The position numbers and the translations under genes were made by a program. A stretch of 53,385 nucleotides of DNA. Origin: an uncultured archaeon. GTDB taxonomy: Archaea > Asgardarchaeota > Hermodarchaeia > Hermodarchaeales > Hermodarchaeaceae. The notes under the pieces were generated by a model, which saw nothing but the letters and a program-made list of their open reading frames with translations, was not told the origin of the DNA and did no database searches. How positions within the stretch are numbered: position 1 is the stretch's first letter; each line of letters opens with the position of its first letter. Location: contig CAYFXC010000008.1 in the NCBI GenBank assembly GCA_964347045.1, positions 20,373 through 73,757 on the forward strand, in the 5' to 3' direction. Below are positions 6,303-25,605 of the stretch, one piece after another.

Positions 6303-7217
6303 ATGAAAGTGAAACCATTCATCACAATTATGCGGCCAGCTAATCCACTATTTGGTAGCCTCACCGCTATAATCGGTGTCCTTACGACAAACTATTTCAT
6401 AATCGTCAACTTTGGACTGGTCCGTTGGACAATTTCTGATCTCATCATTGTGCTAATATTAGCCGCCCTAACCTACATTTTCTTAGCATCTGCCGGGAAC
6501 GTTGTTAATGACATATACGATTTAGAAGTTGACAAGGTGAACCGTCCGAACCGACCGCTCCCAAGTGGTCAGATCACAATTAGACAGGCGAAAGCGTGGA
6601 CGGTGATCCTAATCCTCTTATCGCTATTCTTTTCGGTTCTTACAATTCCCTATTCTTTTATTAGTATCTGGACTGTCGCCATTGCAGCCCTTTTCGCATT
6701 AGTTGGGTTGATTTATGCGGCTAAGGGAAAAGTGATGGGAGTTTGGGGGAACTTCACAGTAGCGATAAGCTTCGCGTTTGGGCTTTTCTATGGAGCTTTG
6801 ATTACATTCCTATTCGTTCCACCCATCATCTTTGTTTATTTCATTACCGCTGCTAGCGTGCTCCAAGGTCGGGAGATAATCAAAGGAATTGAAGATATCG
6901 AAGGCGATGTATTGCGAGATGTCCAAACGATTGCAAGGAAGTATGGCGTTCGAACCGCGGCGATTCTTGCAGCTATTTGTAATATTATTGGTATCATTGG
7001 TTTCTGGTCACCCTGGATTGTGAATATATTGGGTTTGAATTGGACCAGCGCGCTATACATCGTTCTACTAATTCCTGGATCCATTTTTGTAGCTTTATCT
7101 GCTATTCTTATTCTTCGAAATCCGAAGGGAAACGCAGCACGAGCAAGTTTCTTTGATAAAATTGGTGCATATTTGGGATTATTGAACTTTCTACTTGGAT
7201 CTATTATCATTATCTAA
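6303..7217 (+). CDS. UbiA-family prenyltransferase, digeranylgeranylglyceryl-phosphate synthase
   Basis: MRPAN, GNVVNDIYDLEVDKVNRPNRPLPSG and REIIKGIEDIEGD motifs; multi-pass membrane protein. Confidence 0.92.
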   Translation: MKVKPFITIMRPANPLFGSLTAIIGVLTTNYFIIVNFGLVRWTISDLIIVLILAALTYIFLASAGNVVNDIYDLEVDKVNRPNRPLPSGQITIRQAKAWTVILILLSLFFSVLTIPYSFISIWTVAIAALFALVGLIYAAKGKVMGVWGNFTVAISFAFGLFYGALITFLFVPPIIFVYFITAASVLQGREIIKGIEDIEGDVLRDVQTIARKYGVRTAAILAAICNIIGIIGFWSPWIVNILGLNWTSALYIVLLIPGSIFVALSAILILRNPKGNAARASFFDKIGAYLGLLNFLLGSIIII

Positions 7218-7234
7218 CAGGAGAGACAACAAGG

Positions 7235-7924
7235 CTGCGAATTGCTGCCACAAGTGACATTCATTGGCCCCAATATCAGGGATTGTTCATTAAATCATTG
7301 CGACAACTCCCCTCAAAACTCGACCTTTTTCTTCTCGCGGGAGATCTTGTCAGTCGTGGTAATGCAAGGAGCATTCTACCCATTGTGGAAAAACTCAATG
7401 AAGCAAAACTCAACTGTCCAGTAGTCGCCTGCTTTGGGAATGATGACTACGATTCAATCAAAGATATACTCCGAACCAAAGGGCAAGGCACGCTTATTTT
7501 TCTCGACGATGAACTCATGACGTTCACGATCGACGGAATGAAGATAACAGTAATAGGCAGTCGGGGTGTGCTTGATCACCCAACATTTTGGCAATCACGG
7601 AACATCAAGGATATTCGAGAAACATACACAAAAAGAGTTGTCACTCTTGACTCACTTTTCAAGGAAGCTAAAACGCTAAGTTCCTTCATTATTTTGCTAA
7701 CACACTATGCCCCCACTTTCACTACATTGAAAGGTGAATTACAAAGGGATTTCGCTCAAATGGGAAGTAGGCGCGTAGAGGAACTTCTCAAACGTCACTC
7801 CCCAACGCTAGCCATCCATGGTCATGCACATCAAGGATTACGGAAAACCAAGTTAAATAATACTCACGTCTATAATGTTACTCTTTCATTGAATCGCCAA
7901 ATTGTTGTTATTAAAATTCCCTGA
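7235..7924 (+). CDS. Calcineurin-like metallophosphoesterase (probable CTG start at 7235)
   Basis: Extending the 7283 ORF upstream in frame gives (L/M)RIAATSDIH, followed by AGDLV, FGNDD, THY and HGHAH motifs. Confidence 0.88.
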   Translation: MRIAATSDIHWPQYQGLFIKSLRQLPSKLDLFLLAGDLVSRGNARSILPIVEKLNEAKLNCPVVACFGNDDYDSIKDILRTKGQGTLIFLDDELMTFTIDGMKITVIGSRGVLDHPTFWQSRNIKDIRETYTKRVVTLDSLFKEAKTLSSFIILLTHYAPTFTTLKGELQRDFAQMGSRRVEELLKRHSPTLAIHGHAHQGLRKTKLNNTHVYNVTLSLNRQIVVIKIP

Positions 7925-8032: not shown

Positions 8033-9529
8033 ATGTGTCGTTCACGCGACAAAACCTTCATGTCCCAGCCAGCGGTGGATCCAAAAAACAGTGGTTTTTG
8101 CCCCTCCTGCCACATCAACATGGCTGAACGCTACTGTAAAGAATGTGGACAAGTCTTTTGTCTCCCCTGTTCTCGCCAAGACCTCAGCGAATTCTATACT
8201 TGCGCTCGATGCGGTCCAGATAATATCAAAGAGCAGGAAGAAGGCGAATGGGAATGCACCGAATGCGAAGAACCCGCACAGATGGCAACACGCCGTGTAT
8301 ATTTATGCCCTAATTGTGGTTCTGAGGAAATTGTACCTATCCATAACATGCGCCAAGAGTTAGTGGGACGATTTCGTACCACATACTACCGACTACGTAC
8401 TGGACATGAATTGCTGGCAGGATTCGCAGCACGATTGCGCATACTTCGATGGCGGGTCCGGGAACTTCGGACTGCGAGTTTTCTACACAACCCAGAAGTA
8501 GAAAAAGAACTTCTCGATTTAATGAAAACGGATTTGCCCAGTGTTCAAGAACGCATACTCTTTCGGGCGCGGAATGTTGTGGAACGACACCGAGCGAGTA
8601 AAATCCGTTTTATCCATCCTGAACGTTGGACTATCACTGATTTTCCACTTCTAGCAGGGTTAATTGAAGCAATTCAAGAAGATGTTGCAGATTACCAAGC
8701 CTATTGTCGAGACCTGGTTAATGGATTAGATGTGAACCTTGCAACGATTGAGACACGTTTGACTCAAATTGCGGAGTGGCATAAACTCTTCAATGATCAC
8801 ATTGAATATCTGCCAGTTATGGAAAATGAACGCCCTGTTGCAGCAATACAACCAGTAAATCTTGGCAAAACCGAGTCAAATGAAGGGATGGGTAATGGCA
8901 TCCTTTTTATTACCACGCAGCGTCTTCTATTTCTTGGTCGAAAAGGCTTTTTCAATAAAGAAATGCGTGTCGTTCACACTCTCGCGCTTAGAGAAATTTC
9001 TGACATCGAACTGCATGGGCGACTTCGCCGACGACTCCGCATCACTACAGAAAATGAAGAGCTGAAAGTTGGGGGACCCTCCAAGGTATTAGAAGAGACA
9101 CCAGATGCCATCAATATGGCTACAAGCTTTTCTGATCATAGTTTGGTAACTACTTCTGGCTCATTACGTGTATTGAACCTCAAGGTTGACGTGACTCCTT
9201 TACGTGAAGAACTAGATCAACTTATTAATTACGCCATTTCATCAGAGGACTTGGATCCTTCAAGCCAAGTTGATGTTCCCCGCCCCTACTCATATCCCGA
9301 GGGGTATTATCCTCGGTTTTCAACGAGTTCTGATGGATTGGAACGAGACCCAGTATTTCAACTTGAGCAGCAACGATTCAGTATCGAGTCGACTATGGGA
9401 TTGTTAAAGAAGCAGTTCGAGGAAGGGAAACTGTCTGATGAAAAATTCTTCAAACAGTATCGTTCCCTAACTCAAGAACTCTATTTGGTTGAAGCGCAGA
9501 TTCGGGATTTTCGAAGACGCCAAGGCTAG
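8033..9529 (+). CDS. B-box/Zn-ribbon + helical region + PH/GRAM-like domain + C-terminal steadiness-box (ESCRT-I-like) protein
   Basis: Six CxxC pairs at the N-terminus; GILFITTQRLLF (PH/GRAM-like strand); C-terminal SIESTMGLLKKQFEEGKLSDEKFFKQYRSLTQELY matches the steadiness-box pattern also seen in the Vps23 gene here. Confidence 0.7.
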   Translation: MCRSRDKTFMSQPAVDPKNSGFCPSCHINMAERYCKECGQVFCLPCSRQDLSEFYTCARCGPDNIKEQEEGEWECTECEEPAQMATRRVYLCPNCGSEEIVPIHNMRQELVGRFRTTYYRLRTGHELLAGFAARLRILRWRVRELRTASFLHNPEVEKELLDLMKTDLPSVQERILFRARNVVERHRASKIRFIHPERWTITDFPLLAGLIEAIQEDVADYQAYCRDLVNGLDVNLATIETRLTQIAEWHKLFNDHIEYLPVMENERPVAAIQPVNLGKTESNEGMGNGILFITTQRLLFLGRKGFFNKEMRVVHTLALREISDIELHGRLRRRLRITTENEELKVGGPSKVLEETPDAINMATSFSDHSLVTTSGSLRVLNLKVDVTPLREELDQLINYAISSEDLDPSSQVDVPRPYSYPEGYYPRFSTSSDGLERDPVFQLEQQRFSIESTMGLLKKQFEEGKLSDEKFFKQYRSLTQELYLVEAQIRDFRRRQG

Positions 9530-9574: not shown

Positions 9575-10207
9575 CTATTCTTTAACTTCTTTTTTCAGGC
9601 GTTCAAGTTCGCGTTTTGTCCGCTCACGCCTTTCCTCAGAAGTTTCGAGAAGCTCTTCTTCTCCTTCTGGTACAGAAGGCAATTGACCGGCTTCTTCAAG
9701 GGCAATCATGGTCTCGATATCCTCGAGTTCTGCATCTACTTCAGCGTCCATTTCTTCATCGTCAAGACCTAGACCAAGAATTTCTTCGGTTGCTTCAGCT
9801 TCTTCGATGAGGGCTTGAGTTTCAAGAATGACCTCACGGGCAACTTCAGGTGAAGCAGTTTCTCGTAGCTTTTCAAGTTCAGCGCCTATACCTTTAAGAG
9901 CACCAATAACTTCGGTTTCGCCACGAGCTTGGTCTATGGCTTCAACACCGCGTTCCATTAGATCGATTTCTTGCTCAATTAATCTAGCTTTTCGTAGATA
10001 GCGTTGACGTCGACGGAGTTGAAGCTTGGCAGCTTTACGATCCCCCCGTCGAACATATCTAACCGCCTTTATCCGAGAATCCTTAGCCTTTGTTTCATAT
10101 TGACGACCACGGACTTCGAGTTTATCAGTCACCCGGTGAATCCGAGCAATAGTATCTTCCTTGGGTTCAGGTTTTTTCGGAAAGAGTTTTTCCCAGAATT
10201 TTGCCAT
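9575..10207 (-). CDS. ESCRT-III protein, Snf7/Vps20/32/60-like
   Basis: Amphipathic N-terminus MAKFWEKLF (ATG 10207 after GGAGG); basic hairpin GDRKAAKLQLRRRQRY; acidic tail DEEMDAEVDAELEDI; LPSVP (MIM2-like) motif. Confidence 0.9.
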   Translation of the reverse strand: MAKFWEKLFPKKPEPKEDTIARIHRVTDKLEVRGRQYETKAKDSRIKAVRYVRRGDRKAAKLQLRRRQRYLRKARLIEQEIDLMERGVEAIDQARGETEVIGALKGIGAELEKLRETASPEVAREVILETQALIEEAEATEEILGLGLDDEEMDAEVDAELEDIETMIALEEAGQLPSVPEGEEELLETSEERRERTKRELERLKKEVKE

Positions 10208-10211
10208 TTGT

Positions 10212-10823
10212 CTAGCCCTCCTCCTTAAGTCGTTCAATCTCTTTTTCTAGTTCAGAAACCCGTTTTTCGGGTTCAGGAAGTGAGGTACCCGTTTCGATTT
10301 CGATTTCCGAATCGAGTTCTTTCAACGCGTCTTTTACTTCTCCGTCAGTTACTTCAGTGGACACAGCCATACGCTCCATTCCCGCTTCAGCTACCTCTTG
10401 AGTCATTTCGAAGTGGCGCAGGTTGCCTTCAATCTGATCGACTAATTTGGCAACCTCAGGGACCTTAACTTGGCTCTTGAGTCCACCGAGCGCAGAGTTG
10501 AGCTGTCCAAGGATTTTTGCAACCTCACCCATAGCTTCGCTTTGACGCAATTGTGTTTGTAATCCTTCAATTCGCAGACGATAGGCATCTACGCTTAAGG
10601 CCCATTTCTGGAACCGCAGATGATGCTGTAAATACATTCGTGTAGCATCCATATTGCCTTGGAGTCGGTATTTTTTAGCTCGTTGACGGCTTTTACTCGC
10701 TTCTTTTTCGAGCATCTTGCGTTGTAAATCGAGCTTCCGCGTGAATACATCGAGGCGGAAGATGAGTTTTTTCAAATCGGTTCCGCCGCCCAACCATGAT
10801 ACAAATCGGCGAATAGCAGACAT
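10212..10823 (-). CDS. ESCRT-III protein, Vps2/24/46-like
   Basis: Basic N-terminal helices (GNMDATRMYLQHHLR), acidic C-terminus, terminal ELEKEIERLK (MIM1-like) helix. Confidence 0.88.
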   Translation of the reverse strand: MSAIRRFVSWLGGGTDLKKLIFRLDVFTRKLDLQRKMLEKEASKSRQRAKKYRLQGNMDATRMYLQHHLRFQKWALSVDAYRLRIEGLQTQLRQSEAMGEVAKILGQLNSALGGLKSQVKVPEVAKLVDQIEGNLRHFEMTQEVAEAGMERMAVSTEVTDGEVKDALKELDSEIEIETGTSLPEPEKRVSELEKEIERLKEEG

Positions 10824-20090: not shown

Positions 20091-20843
20091 TTATTCGGCA
20101 GGGTTGAGTCCGGGGAAGAAGTATCGTTTACCATGGACAAAAGACTTATCGATTTTTGCTGCACCCACTGATTCGAGGCTTTTAAGGGCAGCATCAGCTC
20201 TTTCTTGAGTCCAATTGGTTTGTGTTATGACTTCTTCCAGGGTGGTGAAGCCTGTTCGGCTTGCGACCGAAAGAACTGCGACCTGATCATTGGTAAGTTC
20301 TCGTGGAACGAGTTCAACAATTCGGATTCCTGAGGGGAGTTTTCGAATGCCTGGGACTAGCTTAGCATTAGCAAGATTTTGAATGGCCTTTGCGACATCG
20401 ACTTGGGAGACGCTAGAACGGCGTTGTTTATTGACAATTAACACAATTTCAGCTAGGGTCATAATGCCGCCTGTGGCTTCTCGACGCCGCTTGGCAATAT
20501 CTAAGATTTGGAGACCGAGTTCATCATAGAACCGTCCTCGACCTGTAAGACGTTCCATTAATCCAGGTTTCTCTTTCATATCTTGAGAAAAGGGAATTCC
20601 AGGCATAGTGATTCCTAGTTCATGGGCAATCGTAGCAGCTTTCTCACTATATTCAGGTGAGACTTCTATAACTTCGCCGTAGGTTTGTTCAAAGACATCT
20701 GCTTTTTCTCGTAATTCCGATATAGTTTGGAGCATGTGTTCGAGTTCTTTGAGCATGAGTTCGACGCGTTTCTTTTTGTAAGCGGCGTCCATTTCCATTT
20801 GTTTTTCAATTTCCCAAAGTCCCATGATCTTTTTCCTCCTCAT
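20091..20843 (-). CDS. ESCRT-II Vps22/36 (EAP30)-like protein
   Basis: FYDELGLQI...TGGIMTLAE, VPRELTNDQ, WTQERA...L and RYFFPG are typical of EAP30/Vps22. Confidence 0.9.
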   Translation of the reverse strand: MRRKKIMGLWEIEKQMEMDAAYKKKRVELMLKELEHMLQTISELREKADVFEQTYGEVIEVSPEYSEKAATIAHELGITMPGIPFSQDMKEKPGLMERLTGRGRFYDELGLQILDIAKRRREATGGIMTLAEIVLIVNKQRRSSVSQVDVAKAIQNLANAKLVPGIRKLPSGIRIVELVPRELTNDQVAVLSVASRTGFTTLEEVITQTNWTQERADAALKSLESVGAAKIDKSFVHGKRYFFPGLNPAE

Positions 20844-21133
20844 ATTTGTCGTATGTAGTTAAGCCACGTTTCAGCTCGCATAGCGAATCGTCGGGCTTCA
20901 ACTTCCTCCACATGTTGGGTTAGGTTGTTTCCATATTTAGCCCAAAAGTATTCATACCATTCTTGGGCTTCTAGTGTTACGGGGTGGTCGATGCCGAGCA
21001 TGGCTTCGGCAAAGGCGGCGACCACATCTAAATCTTCAAGGATATATTCAGCGTTTATGCGTAGATTAGCTTTGTTGATGGCGTTCACCAACCGTTCGCG
21101 CATTTCGGCAAAGGAACGCATTGGGTGTACCAT
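20840..21133 (-). CDS. Small helical protein resembling a stand-alone Vps28 C-terminal domain
   Basis: VEARRFAMRAETWLN parallels EEAKQLEFQAVRWLN of the neighbouring Vps28; overlaps the Vps22/36 start by 4 nt. Confidence 0.55.
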   Translation of the reverse strand: MVHPMRSFAEMRERLVNAINKANLRINAEYILEDLDVVAAFAEAMLGIDHPVTLEAQEWYEYFWAKYGNNLTQHVEEVEARRFAMRAETWLNYIRQI

Positions 21134-21152: not shown

Positions 21153-21800
21153 TTATTCATCAGCCGCCATCTCTCGAAGTCGACGCTTGAAATCGTTTAA
21201 CCAACGAACTGCCTGAAATTCAAGCTGTTTAGCTTCTTCGGGCATAAGAGTTGCATTGGGATCTCGCCCTTGAAGCTGATTACGCCAATCTTTGAGCGCG
21301 ACTAATATCCAATAATCCGGTGGAAAGTTCGGATATTTCGTTAAGAGAATGATAGAATCATCTAAGAGAGGCACAATAAGATTCATTTTCGCGACATCGC
21401 CGAGTTTGGCAATATCAATCAGCGTGATTAGATCTGAAACAATGTCCGCAGTTTTTGCAGCCATACGAGCAGAGGTTTGAGGAGCCAGTTCGACGGTTTC
21501 TTCACCTTCTGGGGCTTGTTCCCCAAGCTGAAGTTTTTCTACCGCAGTGGGAAACCGTTCGGTAATTTTTTCCTCTTCTATAAACTCGTCCCAGGTTTCA
21601 CCTTCCGCTTCAAGCAGCTGTCGAGTTTTTATGGTATCGCGGACAAGCGATTTGAGCTGTCGCTTGTAGAGGGCAGGTTGTAAATCGCCGTCATCGAATT
21701 TCTCGGCAATGCTATCAAGGGTTGCTATAGTTCCATACAATTCAGCTTCTAGTTCGACAACCTTGCCTTTTTTTGGTCGTTTTTTCTCACGCATGGCCAT
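21153..21800 (-). CDS. vps28: ESCRT-I Vps28-like protein
   Basis: AELYGTIATLDSIAEKF..G....Y...L..L N-terminal hairpin; ADIVSDLITLID C-terminal four-helix bundle. Confidence 0.88.
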   Translation of the reverse strand: MAMREKKRPKKGKVVELEAELYGTIATLDSIAEKFDDGDLQPALYKRQLKSLVRDTIKTRQLLEAEGETWDEFIEEEKITERFPTAVEKLQLGEQAPEGEETVELAPQTSARMAAKTADIVSDLITLIDIAKLGDVAKMNLIVPLLDDSIILLTKYPNFPPDYWILVALKDWRNQLQGRDPNATLMPEEAKQLEFQAVRWLNDFKRRLREMAADE

Positions 21801-21826: not shown

Positions 21827-22582
21827 TTATGCGTATTTCTCGAGTGCCTTGTCAATTTGGTAGAGCCGTTTCTTGTATCGCTTGTATAATTTGGTATATT
21901 CGGTTGATGTAATTTCTGCCGCATCAAATTTCTGCTCAAGATTCTGCAACAAGTCTGAGATGGCTAGTTTCTCACTTTCAAGTTCGAGCTTCTCACGTTC
22001 TTTTGCATCCGCAGGAAGGATCAGGGCATCCATCTCGTCTTCATCAGTAACTTCACCGGTTGTAATAGATCCAGTGTCTATTTGGGCAGCCATTCGAGCA
22101 ATACGTTCGTCGCGATCTTGGACTTTCTTGGTTAATCGTGAAACCTCACGTTCGAGCTGTTGATACCGTTGTTGGAGCACTTCTTCCTTCGGAGGCATCG
22201 TCACTTTAGGGGCTTCTCGGGTCGCATCAGGCACAGGAGGTTCACGGGCGAACAGGCCCTTGATACTATTAACCACCTGGTAGACGTGATAATGAGGTTG
22301 CCATTGTGTGACTATTCGAAGATGAATAGCCCCAGATTCAGAATCGACTCGAGGATGCTTCGTCGGAGTAAGCATTCGTGCAACTGGCGGTTGAGCTGGA
22401 AAGTTTGGAGGTACAATAATCTCGACTAGAAATTCTTGTTTACTTCGTGGTCCACCTTTGATTTTTCCTCGCCATCGGCGAAGATTTGACTCAACGGGAG
22501 TGAACGTAGGCGCACGACGATACATCAATTGCGCTTCACGAGCAATCGCCAATTCTTGTTGACTTCTTACAGCCTGTGCCAT
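21827..22582 (-). CDS. vps23: ESCRT-I Vps23/TSG101-like protein (UEV + coiled coil + steadiness box)
   Basis: PPNFPAQPP and HPRVD UBC fold without the catalytic Cys; coiled coil; C-terminal AISDLLQNLEQKF...ITSTEYTKLYKR. Confidence 0.88.
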   Translation of the reverse strand: MAQAVRSQQELAIAREAQLMYRRAPTFTPVESNLRRWRGKIKGGPRSKQEFLVEIIVPPNFPAQPPVARMLTPTKHPRVDSESGAIHLRIVTQWQPHYHVYQVVNSIKGLFAREPPVPDATREAPKVTMPPKEEVLQQRYQQLEREVSRLTKKVQDRDERIARMAAQIDTGSITTGEVTDEDEMDALILPADAKEREKLELESEKLAISDLLQNLEQKFDAAEITSTEYTKLYKRYKKRLYQIDKALEKYA

Positions 22583-23202: not shown

Positions 23203-23401
23203 GGTAAGATTAACCCCCGAAGCTCTCGTTCAAGTGTACTCACCTCAGACTTTTAAGCTTTGATTTGACTGACAAAATAGCGAAAAACTAGTGGATTTTG
23301 CGGAAAACCAACCTACTCTCTTGAATGGCTCGCATTTCCATAGTTTTTTAAGAACGCATCTAGAAGAAATGCCCGAGCGGAACCGACAAAGGGGCAATAC
23401 C

Positions 23402-23653
23402 ATGACACAATCAGCAGGACGGTTTGTAATTTCATCGGTGAAAGAAATTGGCCGATGGGATTGGACCAAATCAACTGCAATGTGTTGTGTCTGTCGCCTC
23501 CAGATCCGTGATGGTGAGCAAATGGTTCATTGCCCGCATTGCGGCAATCCCGCCCATTATCGGCACTTGGCAGAATGGGTGAAGATGAAAGGCACTTGTC
23601 CTATCTGTCGGAACCGTATTACCCTACGAAGGTTGAAACCGGTTAGAAAATAG
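23402..23653 (+). CDS. Small RING-finger E3 ligase, Rbx1/Apc11-like
   Basis: CCVC...CPHCGNPAHYRHLAEWVKMKGTCPIC; probable start ATG 23402; abuts the ubiquitin gene. Confidence 0.85.
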   Translation: MTQSAGRFVISSVKEIGRWDWTKSTAMCCVCRLQIRDGEQMVHCPHCGNPAHYRHLAEWVKMKGTCPICRNRITLRRLKPVRK

Positions 23654-24103: not shown

Positions 24104-24565
24104 ATGCTATCAGAAGAGGACTATTGGGCAAGGTTAGCTCTTGAAGCCAAGAACATGGAAACCGAGGAACCGTCGTTCCAACCCGTTCAGGGCGACCTTA
24201 GACGATGGCAGGGATTTTTATTGGGTACTGGAATTTATGATGGAGGCGTCTTCGTCTTACAAATCAATGTTCCTCGTTCTTTTCCCTACGAACCACCACA
24301 GGTTCGATTTATCACAAAAATCTGGCATCCAAATATCTACAGGGGTCGAGTATGTGTTGGCATCTTAGGTAAGGATTGGTTACCAAGCATGTCACTAACT
24401 GGTGTTGTTGAAACACTAAGAAACCTTATGAATTTTCCTAACCCTGATGATCCATTAAATCAACGGGCGTCACGTGAAGCCAAAAGAGATCCTGTGAAGT
24501 TCGAACGAACGGCGAAAGACTGGGTACAACGCTTTGCGGGATGGGATCAGATACAACGTAGGTGA
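24104..24565 (+). CDS. Ubiquitin-conjugating enzyme E2
   Basis: YDGGVF, FPYEPPQVRFITKIWHPNI...VC..IL..DW and NPDDPLN; catalytic Cys present. Confidence 0.95.
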   Translation: MLSEEDYWARLALEAKNMETEEPSFQPVQGDLRRWQGFLLGTGIYDGGVFVLQINVPRSFPYEPPQVRFITKIWHPNIYRGRVCVGILGKDWLPSMSLTGVVETLRNLMNFPNPDDPLNQRASREAKRDPVKFERTAKDWVQRFAGWDQIQRR

Positions 24566-25605
24566 AATTAATCATGGACGATCCAGTTGTCGAAGAGAAA
24601 AAGAGGGTCCCGGTATATCATGGAACTGAAAGGTATGCTCGCCAATTACTCCTCGATGACTGGAATCAAGAAAAACTCTCAAAGTCAACTGTCGTTGTAA
24701 CAGGTATTGGTGCCTTAGGCACCATTGTCGCTGTTGATTTGGTCCTCACAGGAATCGGTAAGGTTGTAGTAATAGATTTTGATACTATTGAACTATCCAA
24801 CCTTAGTCGCCAATATCTGTTTAATGACGAAGACGTTGGGAAATCAAAAGCCGTTGTTGCGGGACAACGTCTTCGTGAGATGAATCCCGATGTGCAAGTT
24901 CTAGCATTAAATTGTGCTATCCAAGATGTTCGACATTCTATTTACGAAGAAGCTGATCTTATTATTGATGGCCTTGATACATTTGAGGCACGACGCTGGT
25001 TGAATTCATTATGCGTCCAAAAAAATAAGGTTCTCATTCATGGAGGAATGTATGGTTGGTGGGGTAACGTGCAACGCGTAGTGCCCTTCGAAACGGCCTG
25101 TTTGGAATGCCAACCTCTTGTTCCTGCCGAACGTTTACAAAAAGCATGTACGCTACCCGGAGAACGCCGAAAACTGGAGGAGCCACCTCCCAAGTTTCCT
25201 GCACTCTTAAGTGTGGCAACCATAATTGCGGGAATTCAGTTCCAAGAATCATTGAAGCGCCTTTTAGGAGTTGGTACTCCCTTAGACAATTACTTGTTTT
25301 ATGATAGCCTTCATCAACAGTTCACAATCCTTAAGCTTGCCCGAAACCCAAATTGCTTCCTATGTAGTGATCGATTTCGGCTAAAGGGCGAAATTTATGC
25401 TGTTGGTCGCAAAGAAACTGTTGCGGAACTGAAAAACCGCTTGATTATGACATTTGGTTTACAAGACCCCAAGATTATCCGCCGCGGAAAAGTTCTCGCT
25501 GAAGATCAGATTCTTGGGAAACTGCGTTTTAAAAACAAAGAACCCTTATTTATTATTGATTCAGCCTTAGCACAACCTCTAAAGCTGTTAGCGGTTTTCA
25601 AATAA
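24562..25605 (+). CDS. Ubiquitin-activating enzyme E1-like (ThiF + Cys + C-terminal ubiquitin-fold domain)
   Basis: RYARQ, GIGALG, DFDTIELSNLSRQYLF, TACLEC, ACT catalytic Cys, CFLC, and a C-terminal ETVAELKNRL extension. Confidence 0.93.
   Translation: MKLIMDDPVVEEKKRVPVYHGTERYARQLLLDDWNQEKLSKSTVVVTGIGALGTIVAVDLVLTGIGKVVVIDFDTIELSNLSRQYLFNDEDVGKSKAVVAGQRLREMNPDVQVLALNCAIQDVRHSIYEEADLIIDGLDTFEARRWLNSLCVQKNKVLIHGGMYGWWGNVQRVVPFETACLECQPLVPAERLQKACTLPGERRKLEEPPPKFPALLSVATIIAGIQFQESLKRLLGVGTPLDNYLFYDSLHQQFTILKLARNPNCFLCSDRFRLKGEIYAVGRKETVAELKNRLIMTFGLQDPKIIRRGKVLAEDQILGKLRFKNKEPLFIIDSALAQPLKLLAVFK

Follow-up and report, generated by a model that had tools for sequence, protein, structure and literature searches.

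Among prokaryotes, it is the Asgard archaea that encode the closest relatives of the eukaryotic ubiquitin-ESCRT pathway; to our knowledge, they have no Vps36, Vps37 or ESCRT-0. Which protein could recognize the membrane for such a pathway is the question raised by one gene in the window analyzed here, the whole 53,385-nucleotide stretch from an uncultured archaeon of the Hermodarchaeaceae. The main ESCRT locus of this window, at 18–26 kb, encodes Vps4, Vps25, Vps22, a 97-aa ORF at 20840–21133, Vps28, UEV-Vps23, E2, and E1. The gene in question lies outside it, facing an ESCRT-III pair, and an earlier note proposed that its product could be a third ESCRT-I subunit in the Vps37 position, supplying membrane and ubiquitin recognition. 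The genes concerned are as follows.

6303..7924 (+): UbiA prenyltransferase and metallophosphoesterase genes, upstream of the gene under study (Pfam)
8033..9529 (+): whole ORF under study, 498 aa (ORF call and translation)
9575..10237 (-): ESCRT-IIIB (Vps20/32/60-like) gene (Snf7 E 9e-19; best PDB matches 9fn1_U and 9ftl_A, Asgard Vps20/32/60-like / ESCRT-IIIB)
10212..10823 (-): ESCRT-IIIA (CHMP1/2-like) gene (sequence matches)
21153..21800 (-): Vps28, predicted headpiece partner (gene annotation in the window)
21827..22582 (-): UEV-Vps23, predicted headpiece partner (Vps23_core, the only other match in the genome)

Domain architecture of the protein

The ORF on the forward strand is a real feature that the earlier note described accurately, as the 12 family-wide Cys and the AF2 architecture attest. 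Translation probably begins at M10 (ATG at 8060) and yields 489 aa, because most close homologues begin there (MSQ) and residues 1–9 are unconserved. The gene is single-copy in its own genome (2.58 Mb, 89% complete). The AF2 model, based on a family alignment of 69 sequences with a mean identity of 15%, reaches a pLDDT of 91 and a pTM of 0.74 and reveals the domain order Zn-helices-PH-linker-hairpin, with the following elements.

8099..8212 (+): B-box/RING-like module, four CxxC pairs within aa 23–60, two Zn sites (Cys in 59–61 of 61 members)
8255..8317 (+): third Zn site, zinc ribbon C-x2-C-x13-C-x2-C, aa 75–95 (Cys in 62–66 members)
8339..8797 (+): three long helices, aa 103–147, 154–194, and 203–255, forming a helical bundle or "coiled-coil" stalk (AF2, pLDDT above 93)
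8828..9124 (+): PH domain of PH-GRAM/GLUE type, aa 266–364 (VIA-align, Foldseek, bPH_3)
9128..9238 (+): two post-PH helices, aa 366–402 (AF2)
9239..9349 (+): flexible Pro/Tyr-rich linker, aa 403–439 (AF2; 413–433 disordered, with pLDDT below 50 there)
9350..9523 (+): C-terminal helical hairpin, aa 440–497 (helices 440–463 and 469–497), a Vps23-type steadiness box (broader profile A2 against PDB)

The linker is highly variable in length across the family, in which the proteins are 480 to about 900 aa long. Single-protein Pfam matches are sub-threshold (bPH_3, E 3e-4; Vps23_core, E 2.4e-3); across the 69 members, bPH_3 is matched in 31, Vps23_core in 20, zf-B_box in 17, and GRAM in 9. An NCBIfam search of the protein returned nothing useful. 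Foldseek matches of the model to DH-PH (RhoGEF) proteins were rejected as helices-plus-PH look-alikes, with rmsd values of 18–27 Å over 300+ columns and no evidence of GEF function.

The beta-rich zinc region (aa 20–102 of the model) contains six CxxC pairs (aa 23/26, 35/38, 43/46, 57/60, 75/78, and 92/95) that make up three Zn sites, every one of the 12 Cys being kept in 59–66 of the 61–66 family members that cover it. The first four pairs follow the B-box-1-like spacing C-x2-C-x8-C-x2-C-x4-C-x2-C-x10-C-x2-C. One of the zf-B_box matches lies above the cut-off (24.8 vs 24.1 bits), while the protein itself is unmatched; an ANCHR-like B-box is found in 9 of the 69 members, and the family profile searched against PDB matches the zinc module to the RNF4 RING and to the TRIM2, KAP1, and MID1 B-boxes. 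The third site matches the Zn-ribbon families TFIIB, HVO_2753, and L37ae. The NZF (RanBP2-type) signature consists of W-x-C-x2-C-x3-N-x6-C-x2-C and a T-F ubiquitin-binding dipeptide, and the WECTEC ribbon had been likened to it. This NZF/ubiquitin-binding reading did not survive: W73 is present in just 5 of 62 members, the spacer is 13 residues and not 10, and the second Cys is followed by E-E instead of T-F. An unconserved tryptophan and wrong spacing thus rule out the third Zn site as an NZF.

The PH fold comprises seven strands and a C-terminal helix (AF2, aa 268–364). A VIA-align structural search against representatives, with a matched span of aa 256–370, aligned this region with many PH domains at Z 10–13.3, among them the PH-GRAM domain of MTMR2 (1lw3_A; Z 13.3, 107 residues at an rmsd of 2.6 Å), a Leishmania domain (Z 12.5), and Lam6 (Z 12.4); the GLUE domains of yeast Vps36 (2cay_B) and mouse EAP45 (2dx5_A) both follow at Z 10.5 and 17% identity, with 92–110 residues aligned. 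Vps36 GLUE appears at Foldseek rank 9 (E 2.7e-4). The middle domain thus has a GRAM/GLUE-type PH fold (VIA-align Z 10.5–13.3, Foldseek), as the earlier note had supposed, without GLUE as the best match, because GRAM structures outscore it and Foldseek ranks it ninth. A specific GLUE relationship is not borne out either by profiles: Pfam GLUE (PF11605) has no match in the protein or its genome and matches 2 of the 69 family members, weakly, below or near the cut-off, and across 137 high-quality Asgard genomes it mostly picks other small PH-plus-zinc-ribbon ORFs, which it scores above this family. Judged by sequence, the PH domain has no privileged link to GLUE. The protein is the sole bPH_3 match in its genome. 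A basic cluster (R297, K309, R330, R333, and R334) is basic in 51–61 of 68–69 members, and the family PH domain carries a mean net charge of +6; both features fit a putative binding to an acidic surface.

The C-terminal hairpin is a genuine Vps23-type steadiness box. Over profile positions 440–496, the A2 profile searched against PDB sequences places the yeast Vps23 core in the top three ranks (2p22_A, E 1.2e-6; 2f66_A, 3.8e-6; 2caz_A, 1.4e-5), followed by TSG101 (8e-4) and Vps37B (6vme_C, 0.022). In addition, BLASTP pairs the final 64 residues, without a shift in register, with the C-terminal end of the local UEV-Vps23 (E 2e-4), and Vps23_core matches in the genome are confined to these two proteins. 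Vps37 is a poorer match to the hairpin, Vps23 (E 1e-6) being far ahead of Vps37B (E 0.02), and Mod_r of Pfam gave no match to the protein at E values up to 0.1. Values of 0.022 for Vps37B against 1.2e-6 for Vps23 lend Vps37 orthology no support.

Genomic neighborhood and published family

The gene and the ESCRT-IIIB gene are convergent, with 45 bp between their stop codons and ESCRT-IIIA beyond ESCRT-IIIB, in agreement with the convergence on an ESCRT-III pair reported earlier. A convergent arrangement does not amount to co-transcription. The pairing extends across the phylum: among 21 genomes picked across 8 families and 17 genera of Asgard archaea, 20 have an Snf7 gene tail to tail on the opposite strand within 2.5 kb of the orthologue. 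In family f31, a 250–280-aa ORF matching the N-terminal part of the window's Vps28 lies in the same cluster as the family gene, at a distance of ~3 kb, in 5/5 genomes; the statement that f31 lacks Vps28 (Pfam VPS28, 0/40) was rejected on the strength of these ORFs.

The closest database relatives carry Thorarchaeota/Hermodarchaeota labels, and the ESM Atlas neighbors are all Promethearchaeota (Asgard) clusters. Besides these clusters, the Atlas yielded one weak bacterial GRAM lead at 0.83. A narrow, Thor-only profile built from close homologues (A1) detected ORFs of 490–750 aa in 275 of the 400 Asgard genomes searched, spanning 58 of 85 genera, and a HMMER search of 1.84 billion representatives retrieved 98 clusters with representatives of 480–900 aa. 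Absence from families f7 and f9, a result of A1, was dropped when A2 recovered full-length members in both (E 1e-38 to 1e-45). With A2 as the query and one genome searched per family, the complete genomes G067 (f10) and G002 (f3), which encode Vps28, gave hairpin-only matches in other genes and no full-length member.

The family has been described before. Makarova et al. (2024, mBio, PMC10936438) reported the Asgard-specific Znr_CC_PH_SB / Znr_PH_CC_SB (cog.011556), with the same architecture, as "likely to be ancestral in Asgardarchaeota" and "a likely ESCRT-I component", its PH domain being "expected to be membrane associated" "by analogy" with Vps36; their neighborhood table places the Lokiarchaeum (GC14_75) member two genes from a Vps20-class gene, in convergent orientation. 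The protein studied here has the three N-terminal Zn sites, long helical region, PH domain, and C-terminal steadiness box of cog.011556. The ORFs and clusters that HMMER links to it have this architecture as well, together with the ESCRT-III neighbor listed for Lokiarchaeum. By its architecture and its ESCRT-III neighbor, the protein is probably an orthologue of Asgard Znr_CC_PH_SB (asCOG cog.011556), the published members having been compared by description: the domain lists are identical, the ESCRT-III (Vps20-class) neighbor likewise, and nothing essential differs. To that description, the present analysis adds that the first two Zn sites look B-box/RING-like rather than plain ribbons, that the PH domain is of the GRAM type with a conserved basic cluster, and that the order is Zn-helices-PH-SB. 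Both the protein family and its ESCRT-I/PH-membrane reading have thus been in print since 2024 (PMC10936438), so the idea of the earlier note is reasonable but not new. A literature search found no experimental study of the Znr_CC_PH_SB family.

A predicted adaptor of ESCRT-I

The best explanation, which we consider moderately likely, is that the protein is a modular ESCRT adaptor, predicted to dock into ESCRT-I through its steadiness box, to rest its PH domain on the membrane, and to bind a partner through its Zn module. The hairpin would take a place beside UEV-Vps23 and Vps28 in the ESCRT-I headpiece. The target hairpin, that of Vps23, and the N-terminal hairpin of Vps28 would then total three, as in the eukaryotic ESCRT-I headpiece, and the docked hairpin would topologically occupy the place of eukaryotic Vps37. 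The basic PH domain would serve as the membrane anchor of the complex, and the zinc module may bind a further partner or cargo. Through this combination of hairpin docking, basic PH domain, and zinc module, the protein would supply membrane recognition, the role of the eukaryotic Vps36 GLUE domain that is missing from the short local Vps22.

Comparison with eukaryotic ESCRT-I proteins delineates what such an adaptor would be. The hairpin is homologous to that of the Vps23/TSG101 ESCRT-I core (2p22, 2f66, 2caz, and 6vme; E 1e-6), and in both it is the last element of the chain, whereas the protein has no UEV domain and carries Zn-helices-PH in its N-terminal part. Relative to Vps37 (Mod_r), it would fill the third headpiece hairpin place while resembling a Vps23 paralogue from which the UEV is absent; it resembles Vps37B only marginally (E 0.022), and its Zn and PH domains have no equivalent in Vps37.

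The AF2 architecture, the Vps23-type hairpin, the basic PH domain, the ESCRT-IIIB pairing, the wide distribution, and the literature argue for the adaptor reading. So does a variant in family f26, whose protein carries this head on Vps22-like winged helices and thereby shows that ESCRT-I/II-type scaffolds use it. The Vps23-like, rather than Vps37-like, character of the hairpin argues against it, as do f10/G067 and f3/G002, which have Vps28 and hairpin-only matches. We know of no PI3P in archaeal membranes, which also counts against the adaptor. Hatano et al. (2022, PMC9192718) found neither Vps37 nor Vps36 in Asgard archaea and observed an Odinarchaeal Vps23(2):Vps28(1) trimer from which a third protein is absent. 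Because this trimer forms without one (PMC9192718), a third ESCRT-I subunit is not required, at least in the Odinarchaeal lineage.

Alternative roles and the f26 variant

CdvA is a membrane adaptor for CdvB, and the main rival explanation, unlikely in our assessment, is that the protein resembles CdvA in recruiting or regulating ESCRT-III directly: its PH domain would lie on the membrane while the hairpin or stalk engages ESCRT-IIIB or self-associates, without ESCRT-I. The most conserved genomic link is indeed to the ESCRT-IIIB gene (20/21 genomes), and Vps23/Vps28 lie 12 kb away in this window. Makarova et al. (PMC10936438) also reported that the CdvA hairpin resembles the steadiness box in HHpred and described a Thermoproteales CdvA paralogue with a Zn ribbon and a coiled coil. 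Compared by description, crenarchaeal CdvA and this protein both have a helical hairpin and are both encoded next to an ESCRT-III gene; CdvA is a membrane-binding adaptor, and the protein is predicted to be one. They differ in that CdvA has a PRC barrel in place of a PH domain and in that the winged helix targeted by the CdvA C-terminal peptide is absent from Asgard ESCRT-III proteins. The best hairpin matches, moreover, are the headpiece hairpins of Vps23/TSG101, the Vps28-N-matching ORF of f31 belongs to the same cluster as the family gene, and the convergent genes form no operon, all of which weigh against a direct link to ESCRT-III.

A weaker alternative, which we rate as doubtful, was the strongest version of the earlier note: an equivalent of Vps36, or bridge, in which the ligands would be the Vps28 C-terminal domain and ubiquitin for the Zn fingers and lipid for the PH domain. 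It is consistent with the PH-GRAM/GLUE-like fold, at 17% identity to both GLUE structures, and with the local Vps22 (250 aa), which has no PH domain and in which the note had seen no room for GLUE. Vps36/EAP45 GLUE (2cay, 2dx5) and the present domain have a PH-GRAM-like fold in common, and membrane attachment is plausibly the same job in both; however, the PH domain here is unsplit, without NZF inserts, and joined to a steadiness box instead of winged helices (f26 excepted). Against this alternative, the Zn sites are N-terminal and not PH-inserted and belong to B-box/ribbon types without an NZF signature. The GLUE model, with its weak matches to 2/69 members, prefers other small Asgard PH proteins, and GRAM fits the fold better.

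The f26 exception bears directly on this alternative. In three f26 genomes, a positional orthologue comes after the UbiA and metallophosphoesterase genes and points toward the Snf7 gene, as in the window. Its Zn-helix-PH head is retained, whereas a tandem winged helix stands in place of the hairpin. Its model (pLDDT 84) has human and yeast Vps22 as the best structural matches (E 2e-7, TM 0.55–0.58), followed by Vps36, and its C-terminal part is 34–43% identical to canonical Vps22 proteins; f26 nevertheless retains a separate Vps22 of 248 aa. The EAP30 winged-helix core is restricted to the f26 orthologues, while the protein of the window ends in a hairpin. By analogy, the f26 orthologue has a Vps36-like plan, with a Vps22-like winged-helix pair where the hairpin would be, which favors the Vps36-equivalent reading.

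The f26 variant also invites a broader, rather speculative proposal: the Zn-helix-PH head may be a transferable membrane/cargo cassette, attached to ESCRT-I by the steadiness box in most lineages and to ESCRT-II by the winged helices in f26. As such, it would correspond in archaea to the GLUE head of Vps36 and might even be its evolutionary source. Hatano et al. (2022, PMC9192718) did not find the "undetermined factor" that bridges ESCRT-I and ESCRT-II, and on this proposal the family would be that factor.

Lastly, a zinc-ribbon RNA-binding or B-box/RING-type protein outside the ESCRT system, as suggested by database names on relatives ("predicted RNA-binding Zn-ribbon protein, DUF1610"; "B-box zinc finger protein") and by weak matches to Zn-ribbon RNA-binding proteins, is highly improbable: these matches span only about 40 residues, far below family cut-offs, and the reading takes no account of the PH domain and Vps23-type hairpin, of the linkage to ESCRT-III across the phylum, or of the ESCRT-II core fused to the head in f26.

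The present gene adds no new kind of system. It is a clean, high-confidence example of the family, beside both ESCRT-III classes, in a genome whose ubiquitin-ESCRT locus is complete, and therefore a good candidate for expression and binding work. Should the cassette proposal prove true, the head would be the ESCRT-I/ESCRT-II bridge sought by Hatano et al. (2022, PMC9192718). This nearly pan-Asgard family is the best candidate for the ESCRT-I/II membrane-recognition step in Asgard archaea.

Winged-helix form of the target protein in f26

In Asgard family f26, the positional orthologues of the Znr_CC_PH_SB protein encoded in the window, measuring 601-608 aa, carry a Vps22-like tandem winged helix in place of the steadiness box. 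Canonical Vps22 is also present separately, alongside this form.

f26 winged-helix orthologues
L048:13401-15206 (genome G298)
G299:C95:9025-10839
G297:C86:4159-5613

Upstream of the Znr_CC_PH gene, genes for a UbiA prenyltransferase and a calcineurin-like phosphoesterase (window 6303-7924; f26 locus L048:10282-13121) share their order and strand between families f1 and f26. The f26 plan, a Znr_CC_PH head followed by winged helices, is Vps36-like in architecture and occurs in a small Asgard lineage.

Small PH and zinc ribbon proteins

Two small Asgard proteins, each composed of an N-terminal PH domain and a C-terminal zinc ribbon, score on the Pfam Vps36 GLUE model, one over and one slightly under its cut-off of 24.1 bits. 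The gene for the former is flanked by RING-finger and Arf-like GTPase genes.

PH and zinc ribbon proteins
L050:930-1565 (genome G126), 211 aa, 29.5 bits
L049:974-1864 (genome G116), 296 aa, 23.2 bits

Vps28 and ubiquitin-side genes

The Pfam VPS28 model matched 0 of 40 genomes of family f31. The N-terminal part of the window Vps28 matches f31 ORFs of 250-280 aa, located ~3 kb from the Znr_CC_PH_SB gene.

f31 matches to the Vps28 N-terminal part
G389:C26:178741-178983
G320:C81:136229-136480
G318:C105:205620-205853
G335:C1:436948-437184
G312:C1:362294-362512

A 74-aa ORF, without a Pfam or NCBIfam match, adjoins the E2 and E1 genes in the window (listed coordinates, 23245-23469 (-) and 24104-25605 (+)). 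Thorarchaeota have been reported to lack ubiquitin (Hatano et al. 2022, PMC9192718).

EAP30-like matches in the source genome

Outside the window, the source genome (G000) holds two more EAP30-like winged-helix matches, both weak; one falls in a 222-aa ORF and the other in a 605-aa ORF.

Weak EAP30-like matches
G000:C7:15432-15803
G000:C1:91232-91414

These ORFs may represent additional ESCRT-II-like paralogues.
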